From positions 224,001-288,000 of the forward strand of contig JBMOPW010000020.1 in assembly GCA_049322915.1 (NCBI GenBank): a stretch of DNA of 64,000 bases. Reading direction: 5' to 3'. How positions within the stretch are numbered: position 1 is the first letter of the stretch; every line of letters begins with the position of its first letter. Source of the stretch: Candidatus Zhuqueibacterota bacterium. GTDB lineage: Bacteria; Zhuqueibacterota; Zhuqueibacteria; Thermofontimicrobiales; Thermofontimicrobiaceae. The position numbers and the translations under genes are program-made. This document shows, piece by piece, positions 1 to 61,227 of the stretch. Under the pieces are notes generated by a model that was not told the origin of the DNA, ran no database searches, and saw only the letters and a list, made by a program, of their open reading frames with translations.

Positions 1-1018
1 GCGTGATGGTCAGCGTTTTTTTATTGCGGTTGTGCTTGGCGATGAAATGGTCGATCAAAATCGGCAGGTCGTCTTTGCGATCCCGCAGCGGCGGCACAGC
101 AATGGGGATGATATTCAACCGGTAAAAAAGGTCCTCCCGAAATTTTCCTTCCTTCACTAACTGATGCAGATTCACTTTGGTAGCGCAGACCACGCGAAAA
201 TCGACCGGAACCGCCTCCGAACTGCCGACCGGCTGAACCTCCCGTTCCTGTAAAACGCGGAGTAATTTCACTTGCAGCAGTAACGGCAGGTCGTCGATGT
301 CATCGATGAAAAGTGTCCCGCCGTGGGCGCGCGCGATGTAGCCCTTGTGGCGTCGATGCGCTCCGGTGAAGGCGCCCTTTTCGTGGCCGAACAATTCGCT
401 CTCCAGCAGGCTTTCCGGCAGTGTGGCGCAATTGATGGCAACGAACGGTCCATTGCTCCGCTCGCTGTACTGGTGCAGAATTCGCGCCACCAGTTCTTTG
501 CCGGTCCCGCTTTCGCCCTGCACGAGTACGGTGTGATCTGTCGGAGCCACCGATTGCAGCGTCGCCATGAGCCTTTGCATGACCGGCGTACTGCCAATCA
601 ACGCCGTGGTTTCGTATCGATGGATCCGATTTTTGAGCTGCCGGTTTTCCTGTAAAATTTCTTTGAATTGCCGGATATGCATCAGCATGCTCAGCAGTTT
701 ATCTGGCGAAAATGGCTTGGTCACATAATCGTACGCGCCGAGTTTTAACGCGGCGACGGCCGTTTCCACCGTCGCGTACGCAGTGATGACGATGACCGTG
801 CAGTCGGCATTTTTCTCCTTCGCGGCTTTCACAATATCCAGGCCGTTCAAGCCGGGCAGGCGCAAATCGGTCAGCACCACTTCGAATCGCTCGTGCTCCA
901 GCATTTCCAGACCGGCGTTGCCGGTGTCACAGGCGCTGACGTGATAGCCCTCCTTCCGGAGCATCTCTGTCAGCGTAATGCGGGAAATTTTTTCGTCTTC
1001 AACAAGTAAAATATTCAT
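1..1018 (-). CDS. Sigma-54-dependent (NtrC/AtoC-family) response regulator, 3' end truncated by the window edge
   Basis: Absent from the ORF track; read manually. ATG at 1018 overlaps the kinase stop (ATGA) and gives MNILLVEDEK (receiver), followed by GESGTGKE (Walker A), GAFTGA, GGTLFIDDIDDLP, LQVKLLRVLQE and FREDLFYRLN. Confidence 0.93.
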   Translation of the reverse strand, partial: MNILLVEDEKISRITLTEMLRKEGYHVSACDTGNAGLEMLEHERFEVVLTDLRLPGLNGLDIVKAAKEKNADCTVIVITAYATVETAVAALKLGAYDYVTKPFSPDKLLSMLMHIRQFKEILQENRQLKNRIHRYETTALIGSTPVMQRLMATLQSVAPTDHTVLVQGESGTGKELVARILHQYSERSNGPFVAINCATLPESLLESELFGHEKGAFTGAHRRHKGYIARAHGGTLFIDDIDDLPLLLQVKLLRVLQEREVQPVGSSEAVPVDFRVVCATKVNLHQLVKEGKFREDLFYRLNIIPIAVPPLRDRKDDLPILIDHFIAKHNRNKKTLTIT

Positions 1019-2475
1019 GCTGCACCCTGAATTGGCAGTGTCACGTGAAAGGTGGTTTTCACACCGGGCTGGCTGGAAACGCGAATTGCGCCGGCGTGAT
1101 TTTCAATGATGCCGAGGCTGACGGATAGTCCCAGCCCGGTGCCCTTGCCCTCATCCTTTGTAGTGAAAAAAGGATCGAAAATTTTGTCCAGATGCTGCGG
1201 CTCAATGCCGGTTCCATTGTCGGAAATTTCGAAGAAGATGGCGTCGCTGTTGAGGACGCCGGTCGCGATGGTGATTTGGCCCTGAACTTCGATGCTGTCG
1301 ATGCTGTTGATCAGCAGATTCATGATCACCTCCTGAATGAGATGGCCGTCCGCTTGAATCGCCGGGAGCTCATCGGCAAGCTGCTTCCTGATGTGAATAT
1401 TGTTTTTCTCGAGCCGATATTGTATCAGCGACAGGACATTGTCGATCTCGTCATTGAGATTGATTCGGGCAACGTGCTTGGATTGTTGGCGCGAAAAACC
1501 GAGCAGCTTCTGCACAATGAGCGCAATGTGATCCAGCCCTTCGTTGGCCAATTGGAGATAGCGATGAGTCTGACCCAGATCCTCGGGCTCGCGTCCGATG
1601 GCGTACAGGCAGTTCTTGATGCCATTGAGTGGATTGTTGATTTCGTGGGCCACGCCGGAAGCCAGCCGTCCCACAGAGGCTAATTTTTCAGCGTGAAAAA
1701 CCTGGCGCTGGGCTTCCAATAATTGCCGCCGCGATTGAGCCAGACGCTTTTTCATTTCTTCAAAGTTTGTGACCAGAAAGCCGATTTCATCGCGGCCGGC
1801 GGTTAACTGGATGGGGCCATCGCGTTCCAGGTCCAATTGATTCATTTCCGAGACCAGTTGCCGAAGCGACTTGGTGAGGCGATGAATGAGAACATAAATC
1901 ACTGCCAGAATGATCACGACCACGCTCAGCGTGAGCGTCAACAGCAGGAAAAATAATTGTTTCATTTTCGCCCGTGTCGGCTCGCTGTCAAAGCCCATTT
2001 TCAGAACGCCCCATGATTTGCCATGGATTTGCAGCGGGAAGGTCACTTCGGTGATCCAGCCGAAATCGGCGATGTTGTGTATGCGGCAGATGGGTTCGAA
2101 ATTGCCGGAAGAAGCGAGCGCGCCCGTTCCGTCAGCGATCTGGCTCGCCCCGGAATAGCTGCTGCGAACCATGATGTGCCCGTGAGGATCGTACACATGG
2201 ATGAATTTGACCTGCTCGTTTTTCTTCAAAAAATTGTGGATATGATTCTCTAAAAATCCTTCCTGTTGCAGCAGACCGCTTTCCTGGTAGATGAGCGCGT
2301 CGAGGATGGAAACGGAGAACGTCTGCGTCACCAGCAGCGCGCTCTCTGCCTGGTTTTTCAAAATGAGCGAGCGCCAGTGAATGAGCACGCTGATGGAAAT
2401 GGCCATCATCAGGAAAATGATGAGGCTGCCCATGAGCAGGACGAAGCGCGTTTTCAGGCTGTAGAGGTAGCTCAT
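1015..2475 (-). CDS. Membrane sensor histidine kinase (TM-periplasmic-TM-HAMP-HisKA-HATPase)
   Basis: H-box LASGVAHEINNPL, N-box NLLINSID, DNGTGI, FDPFFTTK and GTGLGL; two hydrophobic segments. Confidence 0.95.
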   Translation of the reverse strand: MSYLYSLKTRFVLLMGSLIIFLMMAISISVLIHWRSLILKNQAESALLVTQTFSVSILDALIYQESGLLQQEGFLENHIHNFLKKNEQVKFIHVYDPHGHIMVRSSYSGASQIADGTGALASSGNFEPICRIHNIADFGWITEVTFPLQIHGKSWGVLKMGFDSEPTRAKMKQLFFLLLTLTLSVVVIILAVIYVLIHRLTKSLRQLVSEMNQLDLERDGPIQLTAGRDEIGFLVTNFEEMKKRLAQSRRQLLEAQRQVFHAEKLASVGRLASGVAHEINNPLNGIKNCLYAIGREPEDLGQTHRYLQLANEGLDHIALIVQKLLGFSRQQSKHVARINLNDEIDNVLSLIQYRLEKNNIHIRKQLADELPAIQADGHLIQEVIMNLLINSIDSIEVQGQITIATGVLNSDAIFFEISDNGTGIEPQHLDKIFDPFFTTKDEGKGTGLGLSVSLGIIENHAGAIRVSSQPGVKTTFHVTLPIQGAA

Positions 2476-3422
2476 GGCCTCTCCGGCATCGATGCAATGA
2501 TGGGTTCAATGTGGTCGTAATCAGCGTCCCGGGCAATGGCGAATCCGAAGGCGAACTCCGGGTCCCAGTCTTTCACGATGCGCTGATATTCAGTTTTTCG
2601 AATATCGATTTTCAGAAATGCGCTCTGAATGGCCTGCGCGATGACCGCGTCCAGTTCCGCATTGACAACGATGGGCGAGCCGGGAATCGGTTCTGAGGTG
2701 GCGAGAAATCGGATGCCTTTATCGATGAATTCGTAGGCCACGCGATCTTTCACCACGCCCACATCGAAATTTCCCTGCAAAACCTGATAGATAACGGTGT
2801 GATGATAATCGAAATAATGAATGGAATCCAGGTCGCTGATCGTCAATCCATATTTTTTAAATTCGTGGCGGAACAACCAGTTGCCGGAAAACGACTGCGG
2901 CGAAGGGAGAGCCAGTCGCTTGCCTTTGATATCTTTGATGGACTGCAACGGGCTATCGGACCGCGTCACCAGCACGGAGCGGAAAAACGGCTCGAATTGA
3001 TTGTTGAGCGGTTTTAGGATGCACTTCAGCGGAGATTTTTCGCGGGCAGCCAGGTAGATGTAGGTCCCCAAGAATGCCGCCTGAACCTGCCCGCTGACCA
3101 GTTGGTGAATGGTCTCTTCGTAGGAATTACTCAATTTCAATTCGAACCGATACGGCGTCGATTGAGTGAGGTAATTCATGATGGGCTGATACCCTTCGTA
3201 GATCAAATTGGGTGAAAACCTGGAGATGACGCCGAAATAGACAACCGGCTTCGCGCCGGCCGGCGTGGTCGGGGAAGCGGCCAAGTCGGATTCGTCCGGC
3301 GCGATGGAGATGTCAGTGATGGCAAAGTAGCCATAAAAAACAGCTATGACGAAAATGATGAATGCGCCAATGGCCAAAAAGAATTGTAGGAATTTCATCG
3401 TGTGCTTTTCGTTGAACTTCAT
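2472..3422 (-). CDS. PhnD-like (phosphate/phosphite/phosphonate) periplasmic binding protein
   Basis: N-terminal hydrophobic anchor, FRSVLVTRSDSPLQSIKDIKGKRLA, PQSFSGN, HHTVIYQVLQGNFDVG and C-terminal ARDADYD, all typical of the family; 4-bp overlap with the kinase. Confidence 0.85.
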   Translation of the reverse strand: MKFNEKHTMKFLQFFLAIGAFIIFVIAVFYGYFAITDISIAPDESDLAASPTTPAGAKPVVYFGVISRFSPNLIYEGYQPIMNYLTQSTPYRFELKLSNSYEETIHQLVSGQVQAAFLGTYIYLAAREKSPLKCILKPLNNQFEPFFRSVLVTRSDSPLQSIKDIKGKRLALPSPQSFSGNWLFRHEFKKYGLTISDLDSIHYFDYHHTVIYQVLQGNFDVGVVKDRVAYEFIDKGIRFLATSEPIPGSPIVVNAELDAVIAQAIQSAFLKIDIRKTEYQRIVKDWDPEFAFGFAIARDADYDHIEPIIASMPERP

Positions 3423-3481
3423 GTTTTTGACGTTCCTTTGAGCAAAATGTATACCTCACAATTCTCTGGAAAAACAACAGC

Positions 3482-3510
3482 AATGTACGGTATGAAAAAA
3501 TCAAAGTCAA
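3482..3510 (-). promoter_or_regulatory. Putative sigma-70 promoter for the SBP-kinase-regulator operon
   Basis: Minus strand reads TTGACT-N17-TACATT, about 60 bp upstream of the 3422 start. Confidence 0.55.
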
Positions 3511-3516
3511 GGGGAT

Positions 3517-3574
3517 TGTCGAAATCTCGGCAGGCGGCTCATCGAAAAATCGATGAGTTGTCGGAGATTCGTGA
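3517..3574. promoter_or_regulatory. Candidate upstream activator sites for the sigma-54 activator
   Basis: Perfect inverted repeat CTCATCGA-AAAA-TCGATGAG (3538-3557) flanked by similar TGTCGA-AATC-TCGGCA (3517-3532) and TGTCGG-AGAT-TCGTGA (3559-3574), about 100 bp upstream of a -24/-12 site. Confidence 0.55.
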
Positions 3575-3650
3575 GAGCAGGAGCCGTGCGTCGACCGAAG
3601 ATGTCTGGAAAATATGTCGCAATTGTTGCATGTGAGCGGAGGACATTGAC

Positions 3651-3665
3651 TGGCATGGACTTTGC
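3651..3665 (+). promoter_or_regulatory. Sigma-54 (-24/-12) promoter
   Basis: TGGCATGGACTTTGC = GG-N10-GC, close to the TGGCAC-N5-TTGC consensus; about 40 bp upstream of the ATG at 3708 and adjacent to a sigma-54 activator gene. Confidence 0.8.
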
Positions 3666-3707
3666 GATTGCTATTACACTTCATTTTATTTAAACTTAGG
3701 AGATGGT

Positions 3708-4334
3708 ATGCCGGACGTTAAACCACGCTTTGAATTCCGGGCATTCGCTCAGAATTTTGGAATCGTCGAGGACAGGATGCGGCAACTGAGTCCTCTGGAA
3801 AAAATTCGGGAGAGTCTGGAAATTTATATCATGTCAGCCGGCAATAATGAGAACAACACCAAAATCCGAGACGGCCTCATGGATATCAAGGTGTTTGTGC
3901 AGTCGGTCGACGGGCTGGAACAATGGAATCCGCGAATGAAAGGCGAATTTCCCATGTCAGCGCAGATGATTCGCGACGAAGTATTCCCGGCTTTTGGTGT
4001 GACGGCGCCCTCATTGAACCGCAGCGCCTACACGCTGGAGCAATATATCCGCGAAGTGGTTGCGCCCCATCCGGGCCTGGCTGCGGTGAATGTGTTCAAG
4101 CGCCGATTCGCTTTCACCATTAACAATTGCATTGCAGAACTGGCGGACGTCTACATCAATGGCGCCAGAATCCGAACGGCCAGCCTGGAATCTGTCGATT
4201 CGGAAGCGATCCTGCAAGCCAAATCAATGGTCGGGTTGAATGACTTCGAAAATGTCAATTACCTGCTGGCGATCAAGCGCGTCATTGGCATGGAACCGTT
4301 GCCAGAGACATCGCCCTATCGCGTCGGATTTTAA
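3708..4334 (+). CDS. Hypothetical protein, probable divergent CYTH/triphosphate tunnel metalloenzyme
   Basis: AGGAG RBS. RFEFRAF, KIRDGLMDIK, FKRRFAF..IAELADV and ASLES parallel the CYTH motifs of the next gene. Confidence 0.6.
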   Translation: MPDVKPRFEFRAFAQNFGIVEDRMRQLSPLEKIRESLEIYIMSAGNNENNTKIRDGLMDIKVFVQSVDGLEQWNPRMKGEFPMSAQMIRDEVFPAFGVTAPSLNRSAYTLEQYIREVVAPHPGLAAVNVFKRRFAFTINNCIAELADVYINGARIRTASLESVDSEAILQAKSMVGLNDFENVNYLLAIKRVIGMEPLPETSPYRVGF

Positions 4335-4576
4335 CGCATCGCTTCGAAGAAAAGGGCGCCCGTGGAACTGGCGTCCGACGCGCCGGGATTGGGCTGGAAT
4401 CCGCTGAAGCCTTTGCGATGCCGGCGGCTTTTTCATCGCGAATTCAGCGTCGTCGATGACTTTGAAATTGCTCCGGCGCTTGTTCATTTCGGCGTGAGAT
4501 GGTCGCTTCCCGGACGACGACGGCGATGCTCCCAATTGAGACGAATGTTTGTTCATTTAAAAATGAAGGAAAAGGA

Positions 4577-5044
4577 ATGGCCAAAGAAATAGAACGCAAG
4601 TTCCTCGTGAACGGAGATGCCTGGCGCAAGCTGGCCCGTGGCATCCATTATCGGCAGGGCTATTTATCGACGGTGAAAGAACGGACGGTGCGCGTGCGTA
4701 CGGTCGACGCCAAAGGTTTTCTGACGATCAAAGGCATTACGGTCGGCGCGTCCCGGTCGGAGTTCGAGTACGAAATCCCGGTCGATGATGCCAATTTCAT
4801 GCTGGATCATCTCTGCGAGAAGCCGCTCATTGAGAAATATCGATACAAGATTCCATTTGAAGGACATGTATGGGAACTGGATGAGTTCGAAGGCGATAAC
4901 CAGGGGCTGATCGTGGCGGAGATCGAATTGAAACACGAGGACGAGATGTTCCAGCGACCGCAGTGGATCGGGCAGGAAGTGACCGGCGATCCGCGGTACT
5001 TCAATTCCAACCTGACGAAAAATCCATTCACCACCTGGCAATAG
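4577..5044 (+). CDS. CYTH-domain protein (inorganic triphosphatase-like)
   Basis: MAKEIERKFLV (ExExK), QGYLS, TVRVR, FLTIKG, EFEYEIP, EKYRY, WELDEF, VAEIEL and GQEVTGDPRYFN. Start moved to the ATG at 4577, which has an RBS. Confidence 0.92.
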   Translation: MAKEIERKFLVNGDAWRKLARGIHYRQGYLSTVKERTVRVRTVDAKGFLTIKGITVGASRSEFEYEIPVDDANFMLDHLCEKPLIEKYRYKIPFEGHVWELDEFEGDNQGLIVAEIELKHEDEMFQRPQWIGQEVTGDPRYFNSNLTKNPFTTWQ

Positions 5045-5056
5045 AGAGAAACCGCA

Positions 5057-6703
5057 ATGGCACAGAACGGGAATACACCGGAGAAAAATTTTACGAATAC
5101 GCCTGATGCATCCGGGATTGAACGCGACCCATTGGACATGAGCAACTACCATTTGAATTTGCTCCCCAAAAAGATCGTTTCGCCGCTGGAAAGCTTCCTG
5201 GCCAAAATCGGCGGGCCGCTCGCAATTCTGGTTTTCATCATTTTCAATTTTTTTATTGACTTCAAATTTCTGGACAATATCGATCCTGCCATTTTGAGCA
5301 AAGACGCCCGCGCTGTTTTCGACGCTGTTGGCGCGGACGCATTTCAGGCAAAAAACATCTCGATGCTGGCAGTGTTCGTTGCAGCGCTCATTTTGTGGGT
5401 GACTGAGGCCGTGCCCAATTATCTCACGTCGCTGATGCTGATCATCACTCTGGTGCTGACCGGCGTGCTCTCCGAAGTGGATGCATACCATCAGCTCGGG
5501 CATAAAATTATGTGGCTCAACATTCTGTCGTTCATCCTGGCCAGCATGCTGGTGAAGACCGGCGCTGCCAAGCGGTTTGCGCTCTGGTTCATCGTCCGGT
5601 TCGGGAAAAACGCATCGTCGATTTTTATCAGCTTCATCGCCATCAACCTGGTGTTGTCCGCGTTTATCTCCGCCACCACCGCTAAAGCCGCGATTCTGCT
5701 GCCAATTTTTATGGTGGTTGCCGCGATTTACGGCGCTCCCGGCGGAGCCAATAAGACGAACTTCGGGCGCAATATTGTCCTGCAGAATTTATTTCAGATC
5801 AACATCGGCGCCAGCGGATTTCTCACCGGATCGGGCGCGAATCTTTTGGCAGCGGCGCTCATCGGCGGCGCCCTTGGCGCTGAAATTTTTTATTCGGATT
5901 GGCTTATCATCGGCTTTCCGCTGGCCGTGGCGCTCATTCTCATCGGATGGGTGGTGGGCACGCGACTGATTTTCCCCCTGGCGGCAAGAGAACGAACGCC
6001 GCAAATCCAGGGTGGGATGGAGCGGCTTCGGAGCGAATTGAACCAACTTGGTCCCATTCGGACCGATGAAATAAAGTCCGTGTTGATCTTCATTGCCGTG
6101 CTGGCATTATGGGCGACCGACCGCTGGCATGGGCTGAGCGCTACAGCCGTTGCGTTCATGGGCGCTGTGATCGCGTTGATTCCCGGCATTGGGCCGGTGC
6201 GGTGGAACGATGTGGATATTCCCTGGCATCTGCTGCTTTTTTCGGCCGGCGCGTACACGCTGGGCGAGGGATTGCAGGTGACAGACCTGCCGGCGATCAT
6301 GGTTGATCGGCTTTTCATCAGCATGGGATTCAATGAAACCACGCCTTTCTGGGTTTTGTATCTCATCATCACCGGTTCCATGCTGTTCAGCGCGATCATT
6401 TTTCAATCCAAAACTATGCGCACGCTCATTTTTATCCCGATTGCCATTGGTGTGGCCAATCGATTCGGCTACCCGGTCATGAGCCTGGCCTTCCCGGCGG
6501 CGCTATTGATCGAGCACGTCTATGTGCTGCCGTTCAATAGCAAGCCGGCTGCGTTGCTGTATGTCACGGATCAGTATAGCTGGACTGATTCTTTCAAATT
6601 TGGATTTACGATGATGGTCATCGCCTGGATCATCAGCATCCTCATGGCGATGACGGTGTTTCGGTTCATGGGAATTACGCCTCATGGGCTGGGAATTTTT
6701 TGA
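5057..6703 (+). CDS. DASS/SLC13-family anion transporter
   Basis: Polytopic; LWVTEAVP, SAFISATTAKAAILLPI, FLTGSGAN, IPWHLLLFSAG and LPFNSKPAAL. Confidence 0.88.
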   Translation: MAQNGNTPEKNFTNTPDASGIERDPLDMSNYHLNLLPKKIVSPLESFLAKIGGPLAILVFIIFNFFIDFKFLDNIDPAILSKDARAVFDAVGADAFQAKNISMLAVFVAALILWVTEAVPNYLTSLMLIITLVLTGVLSEVDAYHQLGHKIMWLNILSFILASMLVKTGAAKRFALWFIVRFGKNASSIFISFIAINLVLSAFISATTAKAAILLPIFMVVAAIYGAPGGANKTNFGRNIVLQNLFQINIGASGFLTGSGANLLAAALIGGALGAEIFYSDWLIIGFPLAVALILIGWVVGTRLIFPLAARERTPQIQGGMERLRSELNQLGPIRTDEIKSVLIFIAVLALWATDRWHGLSATAVAFMGAVIALIPGIGPVRWNDVDIPWHLLLFSAGAYTLGEGLQVTDLPAIMVDRLFISMGFNETTPFWVLYLIITGSMLFSAIIFQSKTMRTLIFIPIAIGVANRFGYPVMSLAFPAALLIEHVYVLPFNSKPAALLYVTDQYSWTDSFKFGFTMMVIAWIISILMAMTVFRFMGITPHGLGIF

Positions 6704-6869
6704 CAGCAATGTTCATGGCCGTTGAAAAATGCTGACGCAGAAATCCTGTCCCGATTCGAAAGCGCGAGGCGTTTCGCTGTTGCGCTGACGTCCCTGAGTC
6801 GCTCACGCCTTCGCGGCTGGAAATCTGGGAGTCGTTTCAGATAATGTAATTATTCAGGCATGTATTTTT

Positions 6870-7009
6870 GCCGCAAAGGCGCCAGGTCACGAAGCCCTGG
6901 CGTTAAAGTCAGGTAACAGAAATTCAATTTTATTTTTAAAACCAAATTCAGTTTTCAGAATTCATTTTTAAGATGTTTCTTTTTCTTTGTGCTTTTGAGA
7001 CTTGGTGGC
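6870..7009. repeat. Inverted pair of 25-bp, 8-nt-periodic repeat arms around an AT-rich spacer
   Basis: GCCGCAAAGGCGCCAGGTCACGAAG (6870-6894) and CTTTGTGCTTTTGAGACTTGGTGGC (6985-7009); relatives occur at 33494 and 36474/36578. Confidence 0.55.
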
Positions 7010-7085
7010 TAAACAGTCACCAGATTTGAAAATGAAATAGTGGAATAACAAGAAGTTGGAATGAAAGTCATTGACGGTGAGGATG

Positions 7086-7730
7086 ATGTCTATTTTATTC
7101 AAATCAACAAAACAGTTAGTGATGCAGATTGATGAGTTTTTGGATGCCATTTCCCAGGGTAGTCTGCTGTTTAAATTGGGAGTGAAAAATTATCTGGAAA
7201 AAGATAATCCAAATTTCAATGAGCATCTCAAATCGATCGATTCCCTTGAAGGCAAAGCCGACGAATTGCGCCGTAATATTGAAAATCAACTCTACACTCA
7301 GACGCTCATCCCGGAGCACCGCGGCGATGTGTTGGGGCTGCTGGAGAGCACGGATAATGTGATCAACCAGATGAAAGCGACGCTGTTCCAGTTCGATATT
7401 GAAACGCCGGAAATTCCGGAATCATTGAATAAGCATTTCATCGACCTGACCGAGATGTCCGTGAACTCCACCGAGGTGTTGGTGAAGGCTATTCGCGCAT
7501 TTTTCAAGGATGTGAATTCGGTGAAAGATCATCTTCACAAAGTCTACTTTTTCGAAAAAGAAGCGGATCGAATTGGGGATGATCTCAAGCGCCATGCGTT
7601 CAAACTGAATATCGAGTTGAGCCAGAAATTTCATCTCCGGTACTTTGCGCTGCATATTCAGCAAGTGTCGGACAATGCCGAAGCGGTCGCTGACCGGCTG
7701 GACATCTGCACCATAAAGAGAACGATGTGA
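7086..7730 (+). CDS. DUF47 / PhoU-like phosphate transport regulator
   Basis: LEGKADELRR and FEKEADRIGD repeats, SDNAEAVADRL; immediately upstream of a PiT gene. Start could be 7083. Confidence 0.9.
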   Translation: MSILFKSTKQLVMQIDEFLDAISQGSLLFKLGVKNYLEKDNPNFNEHLKSIDSLEGKADELRRNIENQLYTQTLIPEHRGDVLGLLESTDNVINQMKATLFQFDIETPEIPESLNKHFIDLTEMSVNSTEVLVKAIRAFFKDVNSVKDHLHKVYFFEKEADRIGDDLKRHAFKLNIELSQKFHLRYFALHIQQVSDNAEAVADRLDICTIKRTM

Positions 7731-7731
7731 C

Positions 7732-9222
7732 ATGGTATCGGCATTTTTAATAAGCGGACTGTTTCTCGGCTGGTCGTTGGGTGCGAATGATGCGGGCAAT
7801 GTCTTCGGCACGGCTGTGGCGACAAAAATGCTGCGCTTTAAAACTGCCGCCGCGATTTGCAGTGTGTTCGTCATTCTGGGCGCTGCATTCAGCGGGGCCG
7901 GCGCCTCGCACACGCTGGAGCGATTGGGATCTGTGAACGCCATTGCCGGCTCCTTCATTGTGGCGCTGGCCGCTGCCATCACGACGTTTTTCATGACGCG
8001 CATCAAAATACCGGTCTCCTCGAGCCAGGGAATTGTCGGAGCGATTATTGGCTGGAATTTCTTTGCCGGCTATTTGACGGACTTTCGCTCTTTAACGACA
8101 ATCATCCTGACCTGGATTCTCTGTCCGGCGCTTTCTGCGGCGTTCGCCATCGTGCTCTTTTTGATCATGAAGGCCTGGCTCAGCCGATTGAAAATCCACA
8201 TGCTGCAAATGGATATGCTGACCCGAGTCGGCCTGATCATTGTCGGCGCGTTTGGTTCGTACACACTGGGAGCGAACAATATTGCCAATGTCATGGGCGT
8301 CTTCGTGCCGGTGGCCGATTTCCCGACCATTCACATTGCCGGTTTTTTGAACTTCACCGGCACCCAGTTGTTGTTCGCGCTGGGCGGTTTCGCCATTGCC
8401 GCCGGCGTGTTCACCTATTCCCATAAAGTGATGGATACCGTGGGCAAGAGCCTGTTCAAGCTATCACCCATTGCGGCGTTGATCGTGGTGCTGGCCCATT
8501 CAATCGTCCTGTTCCTTTTTTCATCGGAAGGATTGGGGCAATTTCTCGCCTCTATCGGATTGCCATCCATTCCGCTCGTGCCTGTCTCCAGCACTCAGGC
8601 GATTGTTGGCGCTGTCATCGGGATTGGCATTTTAAAAGGCGGACGGCAGATCAAATTCAAAATTTTAGGCGGAATAGCCCTGGGCTGGGTGACGACTCCC
8701 ATCATGGCCGGCCTGGTGGCATTTCTCTCGCTGTTCATTTTTCAAAATGTCTTTGACCAGCAGGTGTACCGGAAAGTCTCTTTCGATATGAATGAGCAGG
8801 TCATTCGCCAACTCAATGCAGAGGGCATTGTCGATACAAGCCTTGTTAGTTTGCAGAAAACCGAGTTTAAAAATCCCGCCCGGTTCGAATCGGTGCTCCG
8901 CGACCAAACGACGCTGAACCATGACCAGCGGAAAAAGGTAATCGAATATTCATTCGTGGAATCATACAGAGTCAATCCTCGGCTCATTGATAGTAAAATC
9001 GATAGTCTGTGGTTCACGCCGGACCAGATGGCAGCGTTGAGATCCCTTGCCGGAAAAACCTATTCGTATCGCTGGCAGTTTGTGAACGATTTACAGCGAT
9101 GGGGTGAGGCGTGGCGGTTTCGCGATGAAACAAAATTTACCCGGAATTACAATAAAGACCTGCAATCGAAATTCGAATTTCTATTCGAGATGTTTCGGGT
9201 CGATGACGAGGCAATGAATTAG
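7732..9222 (+). CDS. Inorganic phosphate transporter (PiT family) with a soluble C-terminal extension
   Basis: Signature motifs GANDAGN and GANNIAN; PVSSSQGIVGA and PVSSTQAIVGA. Confidence 0.93.
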   Translation: MVSAFLISGLFLGWSLGANDAGNVFGTAVATKMLRFKTAAAICSVFVILGAAFSGAGASHTLERLGSVNAIAGSFIVALAAAITTFFMTRIKIPVSSSQGIVGAIIGWNFFAGYLTDFRSLTTIILTWILCPALSAAFAIVLFLIMKAWLSRLKIHMLQMDMLTRVGLIIVGAFGSYTLGANNIANVMGVFVPVADFPTIHIAGFLNFTGTQLLFALGGFAIAAGVFTYSHKVMDTVGKSLFKLSPIAALIVVLAHSIVLFLFSSEGLGQFLASIGLPSIPLVPVSSTQAIVGAVIGIGILKGGRQIKFKILGGIALGWVTTPIMAGLVAFLSLFIFQNVFDQQVYRKVSFDMNEQVIRQLNAEGIVDTSLVSLQKTEFKNPARFESVLRDQTTLNHDQRKKVIEYSFVESYRVNPRLIDSKIDSLWFTPDQMAALRSLAGKTYSYRWQFVNDLQRWGEAWRFRDETKFTRNYNKDLQSKFEFLFEMFRVDDEAMN

Positions 9223-9296
9223 TCAGCAATAATGGGGCGGCCGGGCAATTACGTTTTTAAATCACTCATTCAAAATATTTCTTCACAGGAGATGGC

Positions 9297-10517
9297 ATGA
9301 AAATTTTTACTCCCGTAGTCGTACTTTCTTTACTCTTACTTTTCAGTATTTCTTTCGCGCAGACAGAGGCTCAAATCGCGCCGGGTCGAACGGAGTGGGA
9401 TCATGGAATCCTCATGTTCAAGTCGGATGACGGCGCGTTTCAGACCCGCTTTGATATGCGCGCTTATCTCAATGGCGGCTATTTCTTCGAGGACGAAGAT
9501 AGGCTCAGCAGCGGCACGCACGTGCGAAAAGCGCGATTCACCTTGAAGACATTGCTATATAACACCTGGCGGGCGGAATGGGATATTGATGTGGCTGAAG
9601 GCGTTGTGGAAATAAAAGATATGTTCCTGTCATTCGTGGGATTCGATAACTCCCACATCAAGTTTGGCCATTTCAAAATGCCGTTGGGACTGGAAGAATT
9701 GATGACGTCGCGGTACCAGACATTTGTGGAGCGAGCCTATCCCATGATGGCGTTTGAAACCGACCGCCATTTGGGCCTGCAATATTCGCGGTGGGGAACG
9801 AATTGGAATCTCAGGTCAGCAGTTTTCGGCCAGACGATGGATGCCGTTAAAAATAAGTCAATGGACGAAACCGGGAATGGCGCCGCGGCGCGCCTGGTGT
9901 ACACGCCTATCCAGAATTCGAAAGCCATCATTCACACCGGTCTGGCGCTCGCCTATCAGAAACCGGATGATGAAAGCAACGCCATGGAATTTCAGAGCGA
10001 AGCTGAGACGAAGCTGGGTGACGCCGAAATCCTTTCCACAGGGACGGTGTTCGATGTGAGCTATGCGTTCAAAACCGGACTGGAAGGAGTTATGGTTTAC
10101 AAAAATCTCTCGCTACAGGGAGAATATATTCAGACGAATTTACAGCGAATGAACGGCGCCGAGAATGCTACGTTGAGCGGCGGCTATGCGTTCATCAGTT
10201 GGATACTCACCGGCGAGATGCGTCCCTGGGTGAAAGAAGAAGGGGAGTTCGGTCAGATCATTCCCAAGAGCAACACCGTTGGCGCCTGGGAAATTGCGGC
10301 CCGCTACAGTCATCTCAATTTGAGCGATGACAAGGCCGGCATCACCGGCGGCAAGGCCAATAATTATACACTGGGATTGAACTGGTACGCCAATCCCAAC
10401 ATTCGGTTTATATTAAATTACACCTACGTGGATAATTCCATTTTCGCCACCAACGATGGATTCCCCGGTAATTACGATTTCAGCGTGCTCCATTTTTTGG
10501 CGATGGTTTTCTTTTAA
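9297..10517 (+). CDS. Phosphate-selective porin, OprO/OprP family
   Basis: Signal peptide, VRKAR, GHFKMPLGLEELMTSRYQTFVER, LQGEY, LTGE, GAWEIAARYS, TLGLNWY and C-terminal Phe. Confidence 0.9.
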   Translation: MKIFTPVVVLSLLLLFSISFAQTEAQIAPGRTEWDHGILMFKSDDGAFQTRFDMRAYLNGGYFFEDEDRLSSGTHVRKARFTLKTLLYNTWRAEWDIDVAEGVVEIKDMFLSFVGFDNSHIKFGHFKMPLGLEELMTSRYQTFVERAYPMMAFETDRHLGLQYSRWGTNWNLRSAVFGQTMDAVKNKSMDETGNGAAARLVYTPIQNSKAIIHTGLALAYQKPDDESNAMEFQSEAETKLGDAEILSTGTVFDVSYAFKTGLEGVMVYKNLSLQGEYIQTNLQRMNGAENATLSGGYAFISWILTGEMRPWVKEEGEFGQIIPKSNTVGAWEIAARYSHLNLSDDKAGITGGKANNYTLGLNWYANPNIRFILNYTYVDNSIFATNDGFPGNYDFSVLHFLAMVFF

Positions 10518-10771
10518 TCTGACTGGCATTTTAAAAAAGTGCCGAAGTAGTGGAAATCTTGCTGTGACCAATTTAGCACAGAGGTGAGAGTCGCGCGCCG
10601 GGACTTATTTAAAAAAAATGATAGTGAAACGAAATCATTCTAATCAGCAATGAGATGATGCAGTGACCATAGCTATTGTGCACCTAAATTCTGATTCCGG
10701 AGTCTAATAATTTGAAGCTTTTTTATATTGCGTTGAATCGATTGAGTAGAACACAATCTGGAGGGAAAATC

Positions 10772-12106
10772 ATGAAATTATGGCCTGTTCTATTGTTGTT
10801 AAGTTTTTCCATTTTGCTGACGTCATGCAGCACGGATGAATCGACTGGTCTGGATGACAAAAATGAAAAAAGTGAATTCAAGCTCCTCATCAATGAATTT
10901 ATGGCCAGCAACGACGCGGCCAGCGCTGACGCGGATGACAACGGCAGCGGCGATAACAGCCCCTATGACGACTGGTTTGAAATCTATAATGCCGACAGCG
11001 TCGCAGTGAATGTCGCTGGAATGTACGTGACCGACAATCTGGAAAATTTGAACCAGTACCAGATTCCCGGTGCCGATCCGGCAAAGACGACCATTCCTCC
11101 CGGCGGATTCATTGTCATCTGGGCCGATAATGAACCGGATCAGGGTCCCCTGCACGCGAACTTCGCCCTGTCCGGCAGCGGCGAATCCATCGCCATCGTC
11201 GAGTCAGATGGCCGGCTCATCATCAATTCTCTGACGTACGAGGCGCAGCAGACCGACTTCTCTTACGGCCGCAATCCGGATGGCAGCGATACGTGGCAGG
11301 TCTTTGCCCAGGCAACGCCGGCCGCATCGAACACCGGCGCATCATCCAATTTGCCGCCGACGATCAGCGAGATTTCTGTCACCCCGGCGACAATCCAGGC
11401 CGGGGAGTTGGTCACCGTGTCGGCCAAAGTTACGGACACAAATTTGAGCGGCGTTTCGCTCAGTTACGGGGAGGCCGGAAATATTTCAGCCTCAGCGACG
11501 ATGGCGCTGGCCAATGCCGTGTATCAGGCGCAGATTGGCCCCTTCGATGACGGAAAAGTGATCTATTATTTTATCACGGCGACCGATGAAGAAGCAGCCC
11601 GGACGCAGAGCGACACGCTGCATTTTGAAGTCGGCTATGTCCCGCCGGTGCTTTTTATCAATGAATTTTTAGCCAGCAATGATTCCTCGTTCAAAGATCC
11701 GGACGAGGACGATCTCGACGGCGACCCCCAGGACGACTGGATCGAAATTTACAATCCCGGCCCGAATCCGGTGAACATCGCCGGCATGTATATCACGGAT
11801 AAATTGTCAAATCTCACGGCCTGGCAAATCCCTGAAACAGACTCTGCAAAAACGACAATCGATGCCGGTGGGTTTGTCATCATTTGGGCGGACAAAGAGA
11901 TGCAACAGGGACCGCTGCATGTCGACATCAAATTATCCGGGGATGGTGAGCAAATCGGGCTCATTGCGCCGAACGGCACGACTGTAATCGATTCTCTGAC
12001 TTACGGCGCGCAGACCGAAGACATCTCCTTTGGACGGTCTCCGGATGGCAGTCCCAACTGGATTCTTTTCAATACGCCATCGCCGGGCGCTTTGAACGGG
12101 AAATAA
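10772..12106 (+). CDS. Lipoprotein with two lamin-tail domains separated by an Ig-like domain
   Basis: Lipobox LTSC; two INEF.ASN...DW.EIYN...WAD...LSG.GE...S.GR.PDG...W...P repeats. Start set at ATG 10772 after GGAGG. Confidence 0.85.
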   Translation: MKLWPVLLLLSFSILLTSCSTDESTGLDDKNEKSEFKLLINEFMASNDAASADADDNGSGDNSPYDDWFEIYNADSVAVNVAGMYVTDNLENLNQYQIPGADPAKTTIPPGGFIVIWADNEPDQGPLHANFALSGSGESIAIVESDGRLIINSLTYEAQQTDFSYGRNPDGSDTWQVFAQATPAASNTGASSNLPPTISEISVTPATIQAGELVTVSAKVTDTNLSGVSLSYGEAGNISASATMALANAVYQAQIGPFDDGKVIYYFITATDEEAARTQSDTLHFEVGYVPPVLFINEFLASNDSSFKDPDEDDLDGDPQDDWIEIYNPGPNPVNIAGMYITDKLSNLTAWQIPETDSAKTTIDAGGFVIIWADKEMQQGPLHVDIKLSGDGEQIGLIAPNGTTVIDSLTYGAQTEDISFGRSPDGSPNWILFNTPSPGALNGK

Positions 12107-12232
12107 TCCGGGAGTAAAGTCTGCATGCTGCCGGCGTTATGCTGCTGGGCGCGCTGATGCAGACGTCTTGCATGCATTGGCAGCGTGGACTGTGACTGAA
12201 TTGCAATTACCATAAAACTGATTTGAAGCGAT

Positions 12233-12970
12233 ATGAAATTGCTTAACTACTGGATAAGCCTGGCGATCATCTCCGGCTGCAGTGTCAGCGAAAACGCTGT
12301 GCAGCCGGAGCATACCGGGCCATCATTGAAAATCATCTCACAATTTCTACTGGATGTGCCTGAACCTTCGGGACTGGCATTCGACCGATCCCGGAGCGCA
12401 ATGTGGACTGTCAGCGATCAGAATGGCTGCCTGTATAAACTGGACCTGACTGGCAACATTATTCAGACGATGACCTTGGAAGCGACCGATCTCGAAGGCG
12501 TCAGTTTCAATTGGCATACCGGTGAATTGTTAGTCGTGGAAGAAAACGCCGGCGATGTGGTGCAGTTGGATTCGCTGGGAGCTATTTTGGGAAAGCATCA
12601 GATTCTGCAGACCCACGATAATTCCGGTTTGGAAGGTGTCTGCGCAGACGATAAAGGCAGGATTTTTGTCATCAAAGAGAAAGCGCCGGGAAAGTGGATT
12701 GCACTGAATCCCGATTTCTCAATTGCAGAGACGAAGGAATTGACCTTTGCGCCTGATTACTCGGATATTGCCTGCGATACCAGTGACAATAGATTCTGGA
12801 TTCTCAGCGATCAGGGTCAGCAATTGTTCCTCTGGGATACCAATGAAGGAGTATTGGAAAGCTATCACGTGGCAATAGAAAATCCCGAAGGAATTGTCAT
12901 TGATTTTGTCAATCAGATATTTTATATTGTGAGCGATTCTCAGCAGCGACTATTCCTTTTAACTCAATGA
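12233..12970 (+). CDS. SdiA-regulated/YjiK-family beta-propeller lipoprotein
   Basis: Lipobox ISGC; blade motifs EPSGLAF, WTVSD, DLEGV, VVEE, NSGLEGV, WILSDQ and NPEGI. Confidence 0.82.
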   Translation: MKLLNYWISLAIISGCSVSENAVQPEHTGPSLKIISQFLLDVPEPSGLAFDRSRSAMWTVSDQNGCLYKLDLTGNIIQTMTLEATDLEGVSFNWHTGELLVVEENAGDVVQLDSLGAILGKHQILQTHDNSGLEGVCADDKGRIFVIKEKAPGKWIALNPDFSIAETKELTFAPDYSDIACDTSDNRFWILSDQGQQLFLWDTNEGVLESYHVAIENPEGIVIDFVNQIFYIVSDSQQRLFLLTQ

Positions 12971-13043
12971 TATAAACAACAGTTGAGCAGCGATTCTGCT
13001 TATAAATAATTCATTAGAAAATTTACAAACGTGGAGGTTTAAC

Positions 13044-14309
13044 ATGAAAAGAGGGGTTACTATTTTATTAGTACTTTTTTCCTTGCTGGTTGTGTCAATT
13101 TCATTCGGACAGGCCCCGGCATTGAAAATCAATGAGTTCCTGGCCAGTAACGACACGGCCAATACCGATCCTTTTGGCGGTCATGATGACTGGATTGAAA
13201 TTTACAATGCAGGAACAGAGCCAGTCGACATAGGCGGCATGTTCATCACCGACGATCTGACCGAGCCCAACAAGGTACAAATACCGGCGACGCGACCGGA
13301 TTCAACGACGATTCAGCCGGGCGGCTTTCTCATCATCTGGGCTGACGATGAACCGGAGCAAGGTGTTTTGCATGTAGAAATTAAATTAGGCGCCGGCGGC
13401 GAGCAAATTGGGCTGTATGCCAGCGACGCTGCTACAGTCATCGACACGCTCACCTTCGGAGACCAGACCACTGATCAGTCCGCCGGGCGTCTCGCTGACG
13501 GCGAAAACAACTGGGTATTTTTCTCGAATCCGACTCCGGGTTATACCAACCGCATGATTCCCATAATCGTGAATGAATTCCTGGCCAGCAATGATTTTAT
13601 TACAACGGATCCTTACGGCGAAAATGATGACTGCATCGAAATTATGAACGTGGGAATTTTCCCGGTGAACATTGGTGGCATGTACGTGACTGACAAACTG
13701 TCGTCTCCCACGGAATGGCAAATCCCGACCGATATGCCGGATTCCACGACACTTCAGCCTGGCCAGATTCTTGTGCTCTGGGCGGATAAACAGACGTCCC
13801 AGGGAGTTTTCCATGTCGATATTAAACTAAGCGGCGACGGCGAGCAGATTGGAATTTTCGCTTCCGATGGCATCACAGTCATCGATTCTCTTTCCTTTGG
13901 ACCGCAACTTCCGGATACCTCGTATGGGCGAATTAGCGATGGCATGAACTCATGGACCCATTTTTCAACCCCAAGCCTGGGAGCCTCCAATTCAACGGGC
14001 GTCATCTCGGCAGTATTCGATACTGACGTCACTGCGAACACAATTGGTTCCTTTGAATTATATCAGAACTACCCCAATCCGTTCAACTCGGTCACCACAA
14101 TCCGATTCAATCTGCCACAAGCGCAGAAAATAAATATTTCAGTGTTCAACGTGATTGGCCAAAAAATTGCAACTCTCATTGATGGATTTCTTAAAGCAGG
14201 CCGTGGAGAGGTGCATTGGGATGCTGCGAACCAGGTGAGCGGAGTCTATTTCTATCAGATTAAATCCGATAACTATACCATGACCCGACGAATGGTTCTA
14301 TTGAAGTAG
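13044..14309 (+). CDS. Secreted protein with two lamin-tail domains and a C-terminal sorting (T9SS type-A-like) domain
   Basis: Signal peptide; two LTD repeats; C-terminal LYQNYPNPFNSVTTIRF...SGVYFYQI...RMVLLK. Confidence 0.88.
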   Translation: MKRGVTILLVLFSLLVVSISFGQAPALKINEFLASNDTANTDPFGGHDDWIEIYNAGTEPVDIGGMFITDDLTEPNKVQIPATRPDSTTIQPGGFLIIWADDEPEQGVLHVEIKLGAGGEQIGLYASDAATVIDTLTFGDQTTDQSAGRLADGENNWVFFSNPTPGYTNRMIPIIVNEFLASNDFITTDPYGENDDCIEIMNVGIFPVNIGGMYVTDKLSSPTEWQIPTDMPDSTTLQPGQILVLWADKQTSQGVFHVDIKLSGDGEQIGIFASDGITVIDSLSFGPQLPDTSYGRISDGMNSWTHFSTPSLGASNSTGVISAVFDTDVTANTIGSFELYQNYPNPFNSVTTIRFNLPQAQKINISVFNVIGQKIATLIDGFLKAGRGEVHWDAANQVSGVYFYQIKSDNYTMTRRMVLLK

Positions 14310-14344
14310 CCATATTTCATCTCATGAAATAAGCGAAATTACCT

Positions 14345-14385
14345 GCATGGCAGAAGGGACAACTCTTCTGCTGTGCTCATTTTTT
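14345..14385 (+). terminator. Probable intrinsic terminator
   Basis: GCATGGCAGAAG-N8-CTTCTGCTGTGC stem followed by a T-run, just after the 14309 stop. Confidence 0.55.
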
Positions 14386-14907
14386 GATTTCTCCTGATCC
14401 TTGTGCCGGCCTAAAAAAAGTTTCTGAGATCCCCAGTTTAGTCTTGTATAGTCTAACTTAAGCAATCATAAAATTTAAATGGATGAAGTTGTTGTTACGG
14501 TTCTGAAGGTGTAATAACAATTTTGTATTTAATCCCAAAATATGTTAATCAATCTTAAGAAAAACTAGAGATTGTTCGATATATTAATTATAATAGGCCT
14601 TAATTTTTAAAGCGTTAAGGGCCTGATTGTGTTAAACATCATATTTTTCAGTCATTAAAAAAATGTAATTATTAAGCGGGGGTAGAAGACCAATAAAAAT
14701 AGCGGATTAGTAGAACGAGTTTATAGGGGTGGAAAAAGGAATATAGCTTGCATTTAAAAATTGAAATAATTACGTTATACGCATTCTGAAAATGCGTTCC
14801 CAACGATTCCCAAAGCTCGATAAGAAGAATGGAGCATTATCAATCGGCGATGAAAAGCGTGACATTAGTTTATCCTCTGAGAGAAAAGATTTTTACAACA
14901 ACATCGG

Positions 14908-20666: not shown

Positions 20667-20686
20667 CTTTTACATTGGAGCTGAAA

Positions 20687-30903: not shown

Positions 30904-31584
30904 ATGGTGCATGATCTGAACTCGCTTTTAAAATTAATGGGAGAGGTGTTCAAAGCGCACCCCTGGCATGGCATTTCCATTGGCGACGGCCAGCCCAAAG
31001 TTGTGACGGCGTACATCGAGCTCGTGCCGGAGGATACGGTAAAATATGAATTGGACAAAGAAAGCGGCTTGCTCAAAGTGGATCGGCCGCAGGTGTACTC
31101 CAACATTTGTCCCACCCTGTACGGGTTGATTCCCCAGACCTATTGCGGTGAAAAAATTGCCGAATTCTGCCAGCAGAAAACCGGGCGGCAGCACATTGTG
31201 GGTGATGGCGATCCGCTCGATATTTGTGTCTTCTCTGAAAAGCTCATTCCCCACGGCGACGTGATTTTGCAGGCGCGGCCGGTCGGTGGTTTGCGCATGA
31301 TCGACCACGGCGAAGCGGATGACAAAATTATCGCTGTCATGAAAAATGACGCTGTGTTCGAGGAATGGGACGATATCACCGACTGCCCCAACAAAGTCAT
31401 CGAGCGATTGAAGCATTATTTTCTGACCTACAAACAAGCGCCGGGCAGCTCGCTGACCGATTGCGAAATCACAGATGTCTATAATAAACAGGAAGCCTAT
31501 GAGATCATCCGGCGTGGGTATGAAGATTACCGGTCAAAATTCCCGGAAATAGAAAACGTGATGTCCACGATGTTGCGCCGATGA
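30904..31584 (+). CDS. ppa: Family I soluble inorganic pyrophosphatase
   Basis: AHPWHG, VKYELDK, VDRP, YGLIPQTY, GDGDPLDICV, DDKII and HYFLTYK. Confidence 0.93.
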   Translation: MVHDLNSLLKLMGEVFKAHPWHGISIGDGQPKVVTAYIELVPEDTVKYELDKESGLLKVDRPQVYSNICPTLYGLIPQTYCGEKIAEFCQQKTGRQHIVGDGDPLDICVFSEKLIPHGDVILQARPVGGLRMIDHGEADDKIIAVMKNDAVFEEWDDITDCPNKVIERLKHYFLTYKQAPGSSLTDCEITDVYNKQEAYEIIRRGYEDYRSKFPEIENVMSTMLRR

Positions 31585-53077: not shown

Positions 53078-53147
53078 GATGAACTAAATGCACCCTGCGG
53101 GGTTAAATTATCAGATTAAAATCGACAGACCTCGCAGGTGCCCATTT

Positions 53148-54593: not shown

Positions 54594-54598
54594 ATGGG

Positions 54599-61202: not shown

Positions 61203-61227
61203 ATTTTAAACGGAAAGGTGAACGACC

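Follow-up and report, generated by a model that had tools for sequence, protein, structure and literature searches.

The window examined here is a 64,000-nucleotide stretch of the genome of a Candidatus Zhuqueibacterota bacterium (contig JBMOPW010000020.1, positions 224,001 to 288,000), and its left end carries an operon of tunnel-protein, carrier, porin and surface-protein genes together with a divergent set of three sensor genes. We found that this operon is one lineage's version (its nearest named relatives belong to candidate division KSB1) of a widely shared phosphate module. The reading that we favour, tentatively and with somewhat less than even confidence, is that the module takes up and splits short condensed inorganic phosphates, namely triphosphate, short polyphosphate and perhaps pyrophosphate. 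An initial annotation of the same DNA had proposed such a use of condensed phosphates. This proposal is partly supported by the co-occurrence of the genes in other genomes, a CYTH protein resembling the triphosphatase NeuTTM, exchanges that bring Ppx or TTT genes into the cluster, gene fusions, and the finding of no PPK1, PPK2 or Ppx gene in the genome. The features of the operon and its control region are as follows.

2-1018, minus strand: NtrC-type sigma-54 response regulator with REC and AAA+ domains (Pfam Sigma54_activat, E 2.5e-71; Response_reg, E 2.7e-30)
1015-2475, minus strand: membrane histidine kinase with HAMP, HisKA and HATPase_c domains (Pfam)
2472-3422, minus strand: membrane-anchored periplasmic binding protein of the PhnD superfamily (Pfam Phosphonate-bd, E 7.4e-57; TIGR01098, 112.7 against a cut-off of 112.05)
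3517-3574, no strand: three tandem near-palindromes, a candidate enhancer (read from the sequence)
3651-3665, plus strand: sigma-54 -24/-12 promoter element TGGCATGGACTTTGC (pattern match)
3708-4334, plus strand: variant triphosphate-tunnel protein ("CYTH-like"), 208 amino acids (aa), cytoplasmic (predicted structure; RxExR instead of ExExK)
4577-5044, plus strand: canonical CYTH/TTM protein, 155 aa, probable inorganic triphosphatase (Pfam CYTH, E 8e-16, 58.8 bits against a cut-off of 23.2)
5057-6703, plus strand: divergent DASS/SLC13-type anion carrier (Pfam Na_sulph_symp, E 6e-48, 164.5 bits against a cut-off of 27)
7071-7730, plus strand: DUF47/PhoU_div protein (Pfam PhoU_div, E 5.6e-25; alternative starts at 7083 and 7086)
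7732-9222, plus strand: PiT/PHO4 phosphate carrier (Pfam PHO4, E 1.4e-58, residues 17-330)
9297-10517, plus strand: OprO/OprP-type anion-selective outer-membrane porin (Pfam Porin_O_P, E 3.7e-55, 188.1 bits)
10772-12106, plus strand: lipoprotein with two lamin-tail (LTD) domains (Pfam LTD in two stretches; lipobox L-T-S-C in the translation)
12233-12970, plus strand: YjiK-type (SdiA-regulated, phytase-like) beta-propeller lipoprotein (Pfam SdiA-regulated, E 1.8e-17; Phytase-like, E 2e-8)
13044-14309, plus strand: secreted protein with two LTD domains and a type IX secretion (T9SS) sorting tail (Pfam LTD; Por_Secre_tail, E 1e-10; TIGR04183)
14345-14386, plus strand: terminator-like hairpin with a 14-bp stem and a T-run, the likely end of the operon

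This list is based on the calling of open reading frames (ORFs) and on Pfam/NCBIfam profile searches of the window, which recovered all 12 genes named in the initial annotation at the places given there.

A canonical CYTH protein and a variant with a predicted tunnel fold

The protein encoded at 4577-5044 has the hallmarks of the CYTH/TTM family: it scores above the Pfam cut-off, contains ExExK and has basic and acidic tunnel residues in pairs. Its ORF is open from 4499, and the likely start at 4577 was chosen by alignment to NE1496, whose entries 3typ and 2fbl are the best solved relatives (E 2.5e-17) and align from end to end. The residues E4, E6, K8, R39, R41, K52, E62, E64, K87, R89, E100, D102, E115 and E117 were invariant in 72 of 72 sequences. 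NE1496 (NeuTTM) of Nitrosomonas is described as a specific inorganic triphosphatase (PMC3440374). With its catalytic residue set intact, the window protein is a canonical, NeuTTM-like CYTH protein and probably an inorganic triphosphatase. The genome has another canonical CYTH gene, on contig C39:588-1007 (L002).

The gene ahead of it, at 3708-4334, encodes a protein that gave no Pfam or NCBIfam match. An AlphaFold2 model built from 72 sequences (predicted local distance difference test score 93.5) replaced an earlier nine-sequence model, for which fold matches had been weak (template-modelling score about 0.4). The new model gave 49 Foldseek matches at E ≤ 0.001, nearly all of them TTM/CYTH chains and the rest Mediator head subunits. 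In VIA-align, the top eight rows were all TTM proteins (Z 9.7-12.9), led by YgiF (Z 12.9; root-mean-square deviation 4.6 Å over 183 residues), PH1012 (12.5) and ThTPase (12.4), and the chains of Vtc2 and the VTC complex reached Z 8.2-8.4. Judged by this model, the variant protein is predicted to have the eight-stranded triphosphate-tunnel fold. Its invariant residues in the 72 sequences, nine basic and five acidic (R7, E9, R11, R34, E38, K52, R54, D59, K61, K78, K131, R133, E144 and E161), alternate along the strands like tunnel-lining residues, and its first motif, R7-x-E9-x-R11, replaces ExExK. The variant protein may be a hydrolase of other specificity, or else a binding or regulatory subunit.

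The gene set is kept together across many phyla

With the variant protein as the marker, at least 574 relatives were confirmed when a single genome of each species was scanned, and the best 80 of these were taken as the loci for comparison. They span candidate division KSB1, Calditrichota, Aminicenantes, Myxococcota, SAR324, Alpha- and Gammaproteobacteria, Desulfobacterales, Spirochaetota, Riflebacteria and many Bacteroidota, including gut genera. The CYTH-like and CYTH genes stood together on the same strand in 70 of the 80 loci. Forty-four loci were well flanked, having 5 kb or more of sequence on either side; of these, 42 had DASS or Tct genes, 35 had DUF47, PiT or NaPi genes and 31 had a porin gene, followed by LTD (15), YjiK-type (8) and binding-protein (5) genes. 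Co-occurrence in other genomes, which the initial annotation had named as a test of its proposal, was strongly borne out. Five of the eight related loci that were fetched keep the sensor triad, CYTH-like, CYTH, DASS, DUF47, PiT and porin genes; L015-L018 also keep the YjiK-type and LTD proteins, neither of which was seen in L013, and one further related locus ends after DASS at a contig end. Gene order varies by phylum, being DUF47-PiT-porin-LTD-tunnel pair-DASS in Bacteroidota, with the set still kept.

The marker family is large, comprising 3,837 clusters at 90% identity in one search and at least 1,776 representatives at 50% identity in another. Where its members carry a name this is "hypothetical protein", the exception being one UniRef entry, "CYTH domain-containing pro…". 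Nearer to the window, the variant protein occurs in nine of 41 related genomes (own genome included) and in 21 of the 145 genomes of the phylum that are at least 80% complete, which is a patchy distribution. In a Bacteriovoracaceae locus, a phage-type integrase (L033:15473-16459) directly follows the module, here consisting of the variant protein, TctB, TctA, DUF47 and PiT; together with the patchy distribution and the high identity across phyla, it hints at horizontal spread. Two Spirochaetota loci (L046 and L047) have the variant gene with no adjoining CYTH gene. There it is preceded by genes for an OprO/P-type porin and an unknown protein of 315-321 aa, and a divergent LysR-type regulator stands in place of the sigma-54 triad.

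Slot exchanges and gene fusions

Several relatives fill a position of the module with another protein. In L014, Ppx/GppA is found in the place of CYTH, and a TctC-TctB fusion with TctA in that of DASS. L019 combines a Tct set with a Na/Pi cotransporter, which replaces or joins PiT in L019 and L029, and Tct genes occur in 12 of the 80 loci altogether. Because TTT systems need a periplasmic binding protein, the carrier slot that they occupy is an import slot. The carrier slot and the slot for an orthophosphate (Pi) carrier are usually both filled and vary independently of each other, and the two probably carry different cargoes. The variant protein is also found fused to CYTH (P0121 and P0122), to the C-terminus of PiT, which is its cytoplasmic end (P0123), and to Ppx/GppA (P0124; partial sequences P0227, P0230 and P0269); the last of these fusions recurs in separate clusters. 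Such tunnel-protein fusions are few, and some may be gene-calling artefacts.

Carriers, porin and other phosphate genes of the genome

The DASS protein scored 189.8 on TIGR00785, just under the cut-off of 198.6. In DASS carriers, two Ser-Asn-Thr (SNT) hairpin motifs bind Na+ and substrate, as in VcINDY. Aligned to SLC13A1, the SNT-type motifs of the window protein read S-A-T-T-A-K and S-K-T, and P-F-N-S-K-P stands in place of the N-P-P-N stretch; these altered motifs were conserved in 43 of 43, 43 of 43 and 42 of 43 cluster-linked DASS proteins. Both SNT asparagines are therefore lost, the first to Ala and the second to Lys, and the neighbourhood of the motifs contains more invariant lysines. 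In the first motif, the lysine corresponds in the alignment to an arginine of LaINDY and the plastid DiT carriers, which are Na+-independent exchangers. Lysines at these places would suit a highly charged anion. The analogy with the yeast phosphate carriers Pho87/90/91, drawn in the initial annotation, was not backed, as the solved DASS proteins closest to this one are dicarboxylate and sulfate carriers; no chain of the yeast type was among the solved relatives at E ≤ 0.001. Sulfate uptake, suggested by the SLC13A1 and CysP-like matches, was set aside since it leaves the tunnel enzymes and the Ppx exchange unexplained.

The operon is present in a single copy and holds the only PiT, DUF47 and OprO/P-type porin genes that tblastn found in the genome. 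DUF47/PhoU_div proteins are the usual partners of PiT carriers. The PiT protein has a C-terminal extension of about 150 aa (8770-9222) with no Pfam match; this extension aligns in L013 and L014, whereas in L015-L018 the alignment stops at about residue 350. As to the porin family, OprO is described as pyrophosphate-specific and OprP as phosphate-specific, both being induced by Pi limitation (PMC9769906).

Among the window ORFs of at least 120 aa, no pst, phoBR or phn gene was seen, in agreement with the initial annotation. Contig C7 of the same genome encodes an OmpR-type regulator, whose score against the PhoB model is 263.6 bits (cut-off 296), together with a HAMP-PAS kinase. Next to this PhoB/PhoR-like pair lie genes for two PstS-like proteins, PhoU, two permeases (PstC and PstA) and two PstB-like ATPases (327 and 297 bits, cut-off 343). 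The PhoU protein heading these pst genes (L118:4760-5911) is fused to a low-molecular-weight phosphotyrosine phosphatase (LMWPc) domain. With a separate PhoBR/Pst set on C7, and with its own sensor and sigma-54 promoter at the operon, the PhoB-independent control that had been proposed is plausible. Searches of the genome, estimated to be 96% complete, found no PPK1, PPK2 or Ppx/GppA, so that no known endogenous polyphosphate cycle would feed the tunnel enzymes.

Promoter and sensor triad

The element TGGCATGGACTTTGC stands 43 nucleotides (nt) ahead of the ATG at 3708. The -24/-12 pattern occurs twice in the window, where 5.7 matches are expected, and a count of two or more arose in 98 of 100 shuffles, so its count is not above chance; the element draws its weight from position and conservation. 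Ten distinct loci of relatives have the sensor genes in divergent orientation (L013 and L021, being the same contig, were taken as one). In nine of them TGGCA[TC]-N5-TTGC lies ahead of the orthologous first gene, and the tenth, L023, reads TGGCAC-N5-TTGT. Weaker -24/-12 variants were present in L014, L022, L023 and L029; loci with co-directional sensor genes had weaker promoter variants, and those without sensor genes had none. The operon has a GG-N10-GC element before its first gene, an enhancer-binding protein encoded nearby and an rpoN gene in the genome (contig C34), the features expected of a sigma-54-dependent operon. Three near-palindromes of 16 bp (3517-3532, 3540-3555 and 3559-3574) with the core TGTCGA-N4-TCGRCA lie 80-135 bp upstream of the promoter. 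They are conserved across six aligned orthologous intergenic regions and are candidate enhancer sites for binding of the response regulator. The claim of sigma-54 control, made in the initial annotation for the whole system, holds for this lineage and not for the module at large: since a binding-protein match was present in seven of the 80 related loci, "sigma-54-controlled" describes this lineage's version only.

The response regulator is truncated by the start of the window; in the genome translation it is 458 aa long, with a C-terminal Fis-type helix-turn-helix part beyond the edge, and it matched no NCBIfam equivalog at its cut-off. The top NCBIfam matches of the histidine kinase were AtoS and ZraS, both far under their cut-offs. 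We read the PhnD-type binding protein as the putative sensor partner of this kinase. Its nearest solved chains are ArrX (E 4e-20), followed by PtxB, HtxB and AioX, and such solved relatives are reported to bind arsenate or phosphate, phosphite and hypophosphite, with ArrX binding arsenate at 1 µM and phosphate at 150 µM (PMC5908839). The same source describes ArrX, AioX and ArxX as the sensor proteins of three-component arsenic systems, and Cys106 of AioX as the ligand-pocket cysteine of the AioX subfamily, given there as absent in PhnD (PMC5908839). At the position of the ArrX/AioX ligand cysteine (the "FICTY" stretch of ArrX), the window protein and 12 of 12 orthologues have Gly, that is, 13 of 13. 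Arsenic sensing, which the ArrX match had raised, was set aside because the subfamily cysteine is missing and arsenic genes are absent; no molybdoenzyme was seen among the window ORFs. The AioX orthologues are called the only signalling members of their binding-protein family (PMC5908839), and the window protein would be a further signalling branch of the PhnD-type family.

Proposed pathway and points against it

From the gene content, promoter conservation, synteny, exchanges, fusions, folds and motifs described above we infer the ligands, substrates and transport directions of the following pathway. The membrane-anchored PhnD-type protein would sense a periplasmic phosphorus oxyanion and signal through the HAMP kinase to the NtrC-type regulator, which would bind the three upstream palindromes and open the sigma-54 promoter at 3651-3665. 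The surface LTD and YjiK-type proteins might hold or trim the polymer, and the OprO/P-type porin would let it into the periplasm. The DASS carrier, lacking the Na+ sites and bearing lysines, would then import the polymer to the cytoplasm, a task that a TTT importer would perform in some relatives. There the canonical CYTH and the variant tunnel protein would hydrolyse it, with Ppx/GppA replacing CYTH in one relative. The DUF47-PiT pair would move orthophosphate, either taking up Pi freed outside or balancing Pi freed inside. A stricter form of this proposal, namely that the operon is a complete substrate-sensing pathway importing intact tri- or short polyphosphate by DASS/TTT carriers and splitting it with a two-part tunnel machine, is possible and seems to us doubtful. 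In its boldest form, the released Pi would exit via PiT with protons and the cell would harvest the anhydride bond energy of environmental polyphosphate, and this would account for a dedicated ligand sensor in the operon in place of PhoBR control.

A number of observations weigh against uptake and splitting of condensed phosphates. Concerning the variant protein, its profile showed no similarity to that of the neighbouring CYTH protein (hhalign probability 0.08). It may, without the first Glu of ExExK, bind and not cleave, and its identity of 55-80% across phyla would also suit a regulatory subunit. Concerning the transporters, the closest DASS proteins of solved structure transport dicarboxylates, citrate or sulfate, and the known cargoes of DASS and TTT carriers in general are carboxylates and sulfate. 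Solved OprP (E 2e-22) and OprO (E 8e-21) match the porin equally well, which leaves the two types indistinguishable here. Ppx/GppA enzymes have pppGpp as a substrate too, and triphosphate is not, to our knowledge, an abundant natural substrate. A PPK gene could sit in the unassembled 4% of the genome. The module is also accessory within its phylum (21 of 145 genomes), and the best 80 loci are the closest relatives and not a random sample, with kin that are not independent of one another and with L021 and L025 repeating the contigs of L013 and L014.

Alternative explanations

The alternative that survives best, although we regard it as unlikely, is orthophosphate uptake and homeostasis: the porin, PiT and DASS (as in yeast Pho87/90/91) would all move Pi, and the tunnel pair would act on endogenous triphosphate or short polyphosphate, or the variant would be an SPX-like, ligand-binding regulator of the carriers. 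PiT, DUF47 and the OprP-like porin are Pi parts and the sole copies in the genome, and the fusion of the variant to the cytoplasmic end of PiT (P0123) would suit a carrier regulator, as would its unusual conservation, the loss of the first ExExK Glu and the lack of profile similarity to CYTH. ArrX, the nearest solved relative of the sensor, is moreover described as binding phosphate (PMC5908839). In such a system, however, two inner-membrane Pi carriers would be redundant, yet the two slots are exchanged independently and are usually both present. An endogenous source of polyphosphate is missing where PPK1 and PPK2 were not found, and the solved DASS relatives (E ≤ 0.001) offered no chain of the yeast type. 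We also know of no precedent for a TTT system, with its dependence on a binding protein, serving as a Pi importer.

A second alternative, which we consider distinctly improbable, takes as the substrate either organic polyphosphates, such as phytate and the lower inositol phosphates, or nucleotides from nucleic acid outside the cell; the LTD and YjiK-type proteins would capture and trim these, and the carrier would import a phosphorylated product. It would account for the match of the YjiK-type protein to the Pfam family "Esterase-like activity of phytase" (E 2e-8), for the recurrence of LTD and YjiK-type genes in 15 and 8 of the 44 well-flanked loci, and for a 5'-nucleotidase gene 13 kb downstream. 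Yet these two surface genes are the least constant, the constant core being the tunnel pair, the carrier and PiT. The operon contains no inositol or nucleoside catabolic gene, and its CYTH protein is closest to an enzyme described as inorganic-triphosphate-specific (PMC3440374).

Very little probability attaches to a VTC-like polyphosphate synthase, in which an active and an altered tunnel protein would polymerise phosphate supplied by PiT and DASS and so provide the kinase function that was not found. The absence of PPK1 and PPK2 from the genes found, the pairing of canonical and altered tunnel proteins, which recalls Vtc4 with Vtc2/3, and the alignment of the variant model to chains of Vtc2 and the VTC complex (Z 8.2-8.4) speak for such a synthase, and yeast couples VTC with the DASS carrier Pho91. 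The Z scores of the variant to hydrolases are much higher (12-13), however, the canonical CYTH is NeuTTM-like, and the protein found both as a replacement and as a fusion partner is an exopolyphosphatase, which is a degrading enzyme. Both tunnel proteins are single-domain and soluble, with neither an SPX nor a membrane-channel domain, and so lack what defines a VTC polymerase.

Equally improbable is a composite neighbourhood with no single pathway, in which DASS/TTT would import di- or tricarboxylates and its placement would be incidental or reflect co-regulation only. Carboxylates are known cargoes of both families, and the DASS relatives of solved structure that come closest transport dicarboxylates, citrate or sulfate. 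Against this, the linkage spans many phyla and survives rearrangement of the genes, altered motifs that do not vary set the cluster-linked DASS proteins apart as a subfamily, and the genes abut without gaps in relatives.

Operon structure and neighbouring genes

The gaps at 6704-7085 and 10518-10771 that had been pointed out in the initial annotation are both real, and a third lies at 4335-4576. No second sigma-54 element was found in these internal gaps, where weak sigma-70-like and terminator-like matches were at chance level, and an Rfam search of positions 1-15500 returned nothing at E ≤ 0.1. The non-coding gaps at 4335-4576 (242 nt) and 6704-7085 (382 nt) may be peculiar to the genus: the first is also present in L012, of the same genus, and DASS and DUF47 abut in L013 and L016-L018, as do CYTH-like and CYTH in L015-L018. 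A hairpin of 14 pairs with a T-run at 6659-6694 overlaps the end of DASS and may be an attenuator or an inserted element. For the hairpin at 14345-14386, position and stem length alone favour a role as operon terminator, as the scan gave 14 terminator-like sites against 12.9 expected. Among the surface-protein genes, the ORF of the LTD lipoprotein is open from 10712 with a likely start at 10772 (ribosome-binding site and ATG), and the YjiK-type lipoprotein matches solved YjiK weakly (E 0.0024).

Downstream of the terminator lie three tandem paralogous genes for TPR-containing proteins of about 495 aa each (14908-19346), then one unknown gene and a gene for a FadL/TodX-type outer-membrane protein (20675-21973). 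The ppa gene that the initial annotation had mentioned is present at 30904-31581, but it is 16.6 kb away with many unrelated genes between, and it shows no link to the operon. A single frame of 2,888 aa at 44411-53074, containing FAD_binding_4, 4Fe-4S dicluster, glutamate-synthase core, glutamine amidotransferase and GXGXG domains, resembles a giant fused glutamate-synthase-like protein. Further on, the region 53088-62451 encodes another HAMP histidine kinase (53088-54590) and then a complete sigma-54 response regulator (55000-56379), after which come two genes that match no family. The only other -24/-12 match in the window, TGGCATACAAGTTGC at 58639-58653, stands just before the genes for a DUF3160 protein (58701-61199) and a serpin (61228-62451).

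Significance and comparison with known systems

Dissolved and sedimentary phosphorus consists to a real extent of polyphosphate and pyrophosphate, and industrial pollution includes tripolyphosphate. Our literature search found no paper on this gene cluster and none naming genes for condensed-phosphate uptake; in the main text of PMC8115612 none of the terms CYTH, lamin, citrate, SLC13, triphosphat-, pyrophosph- and PhoU was found. A 2026 paper states that microbial polyphosphate metabolism has been considered limited to intracellular cycling (PMC13318637). If the favoured reading is true, the module, which occurs in gut Bacteroidota, marine SAR324, and soil and sediment lineages, would give testable candidate genes for condensed-phosphate flux. 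It would also assign a function to a large unannotated family of tunnel-fold proteins, and define a DASS branch with a changed binding site and a non-arsenic branch of signalling PhnD-type binding proteins.

Among known systems, the arsenic regulators AioXSR, ArxXSR and ArrXSR likewise encode a PhnD-superfamily binding protein with a membrane histidine kinase and an NtrC-type sigma-54 activator. The aio genes are sigma-54 dependent, and the target promoter of the window triad is likewise of the -24/-12 type. The subfamily cysteine of AioXSR/ArrXSR is, however, replaced by Gly in the window protein, as in PhnD, and those systems target arsenite oxidase or arsenate reductase operons, whereas the target in the window is a phosphate-transport operon. 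To judge from these motifs and gene contexts, the triad appears to work like AioXSR/ArrXSR without being a member of that family. Salmonella PgtABC-PgtP, a phosphoglycerate transport system, is a second parallel: there too a binding-type protein of the periplasm senses an external phospho-compound together with a kinase and an NtrC-family regulator, and the genes of all three are divergent from that of the transporter which they induce. The NCBIfam similarity to PgtA and PgtB in the window is weak, with scores far under both cut-offs; the binding protein belongs to another family, and the transporter is DASS and not an organophosphate:Pi antiporter.

For the tunnel proteins, the closest counterparts are NeuTTM and YgiF. 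The canonical CYTH shares with them the ExExK motif and the paired Arg/Lys and Glu residues, and the tunnel domain of YgiF is the closest to the model of the variant. In contrast to both, the window pairs a canonical with a variant (RxExR) protein inside a transport operon, with no CHAD domain. Yeast VTC and Pho91 likewise combine active and altered tunnel proteins with a DASS-family carrier in phosphate handling; yet VTC synthesises polyphosphate and has SPX and membrane domains, whereas the evidence from the window points to hydrolysis, and the similarity is at the fold level only. Pseudomonas OprP and OprO belong to the same Pfam family as the window porin, but they work with PstSCAB-PhoU under PhoBR control, while the window operon combines DASS and PiT with a dedicated sigma-54 triad.

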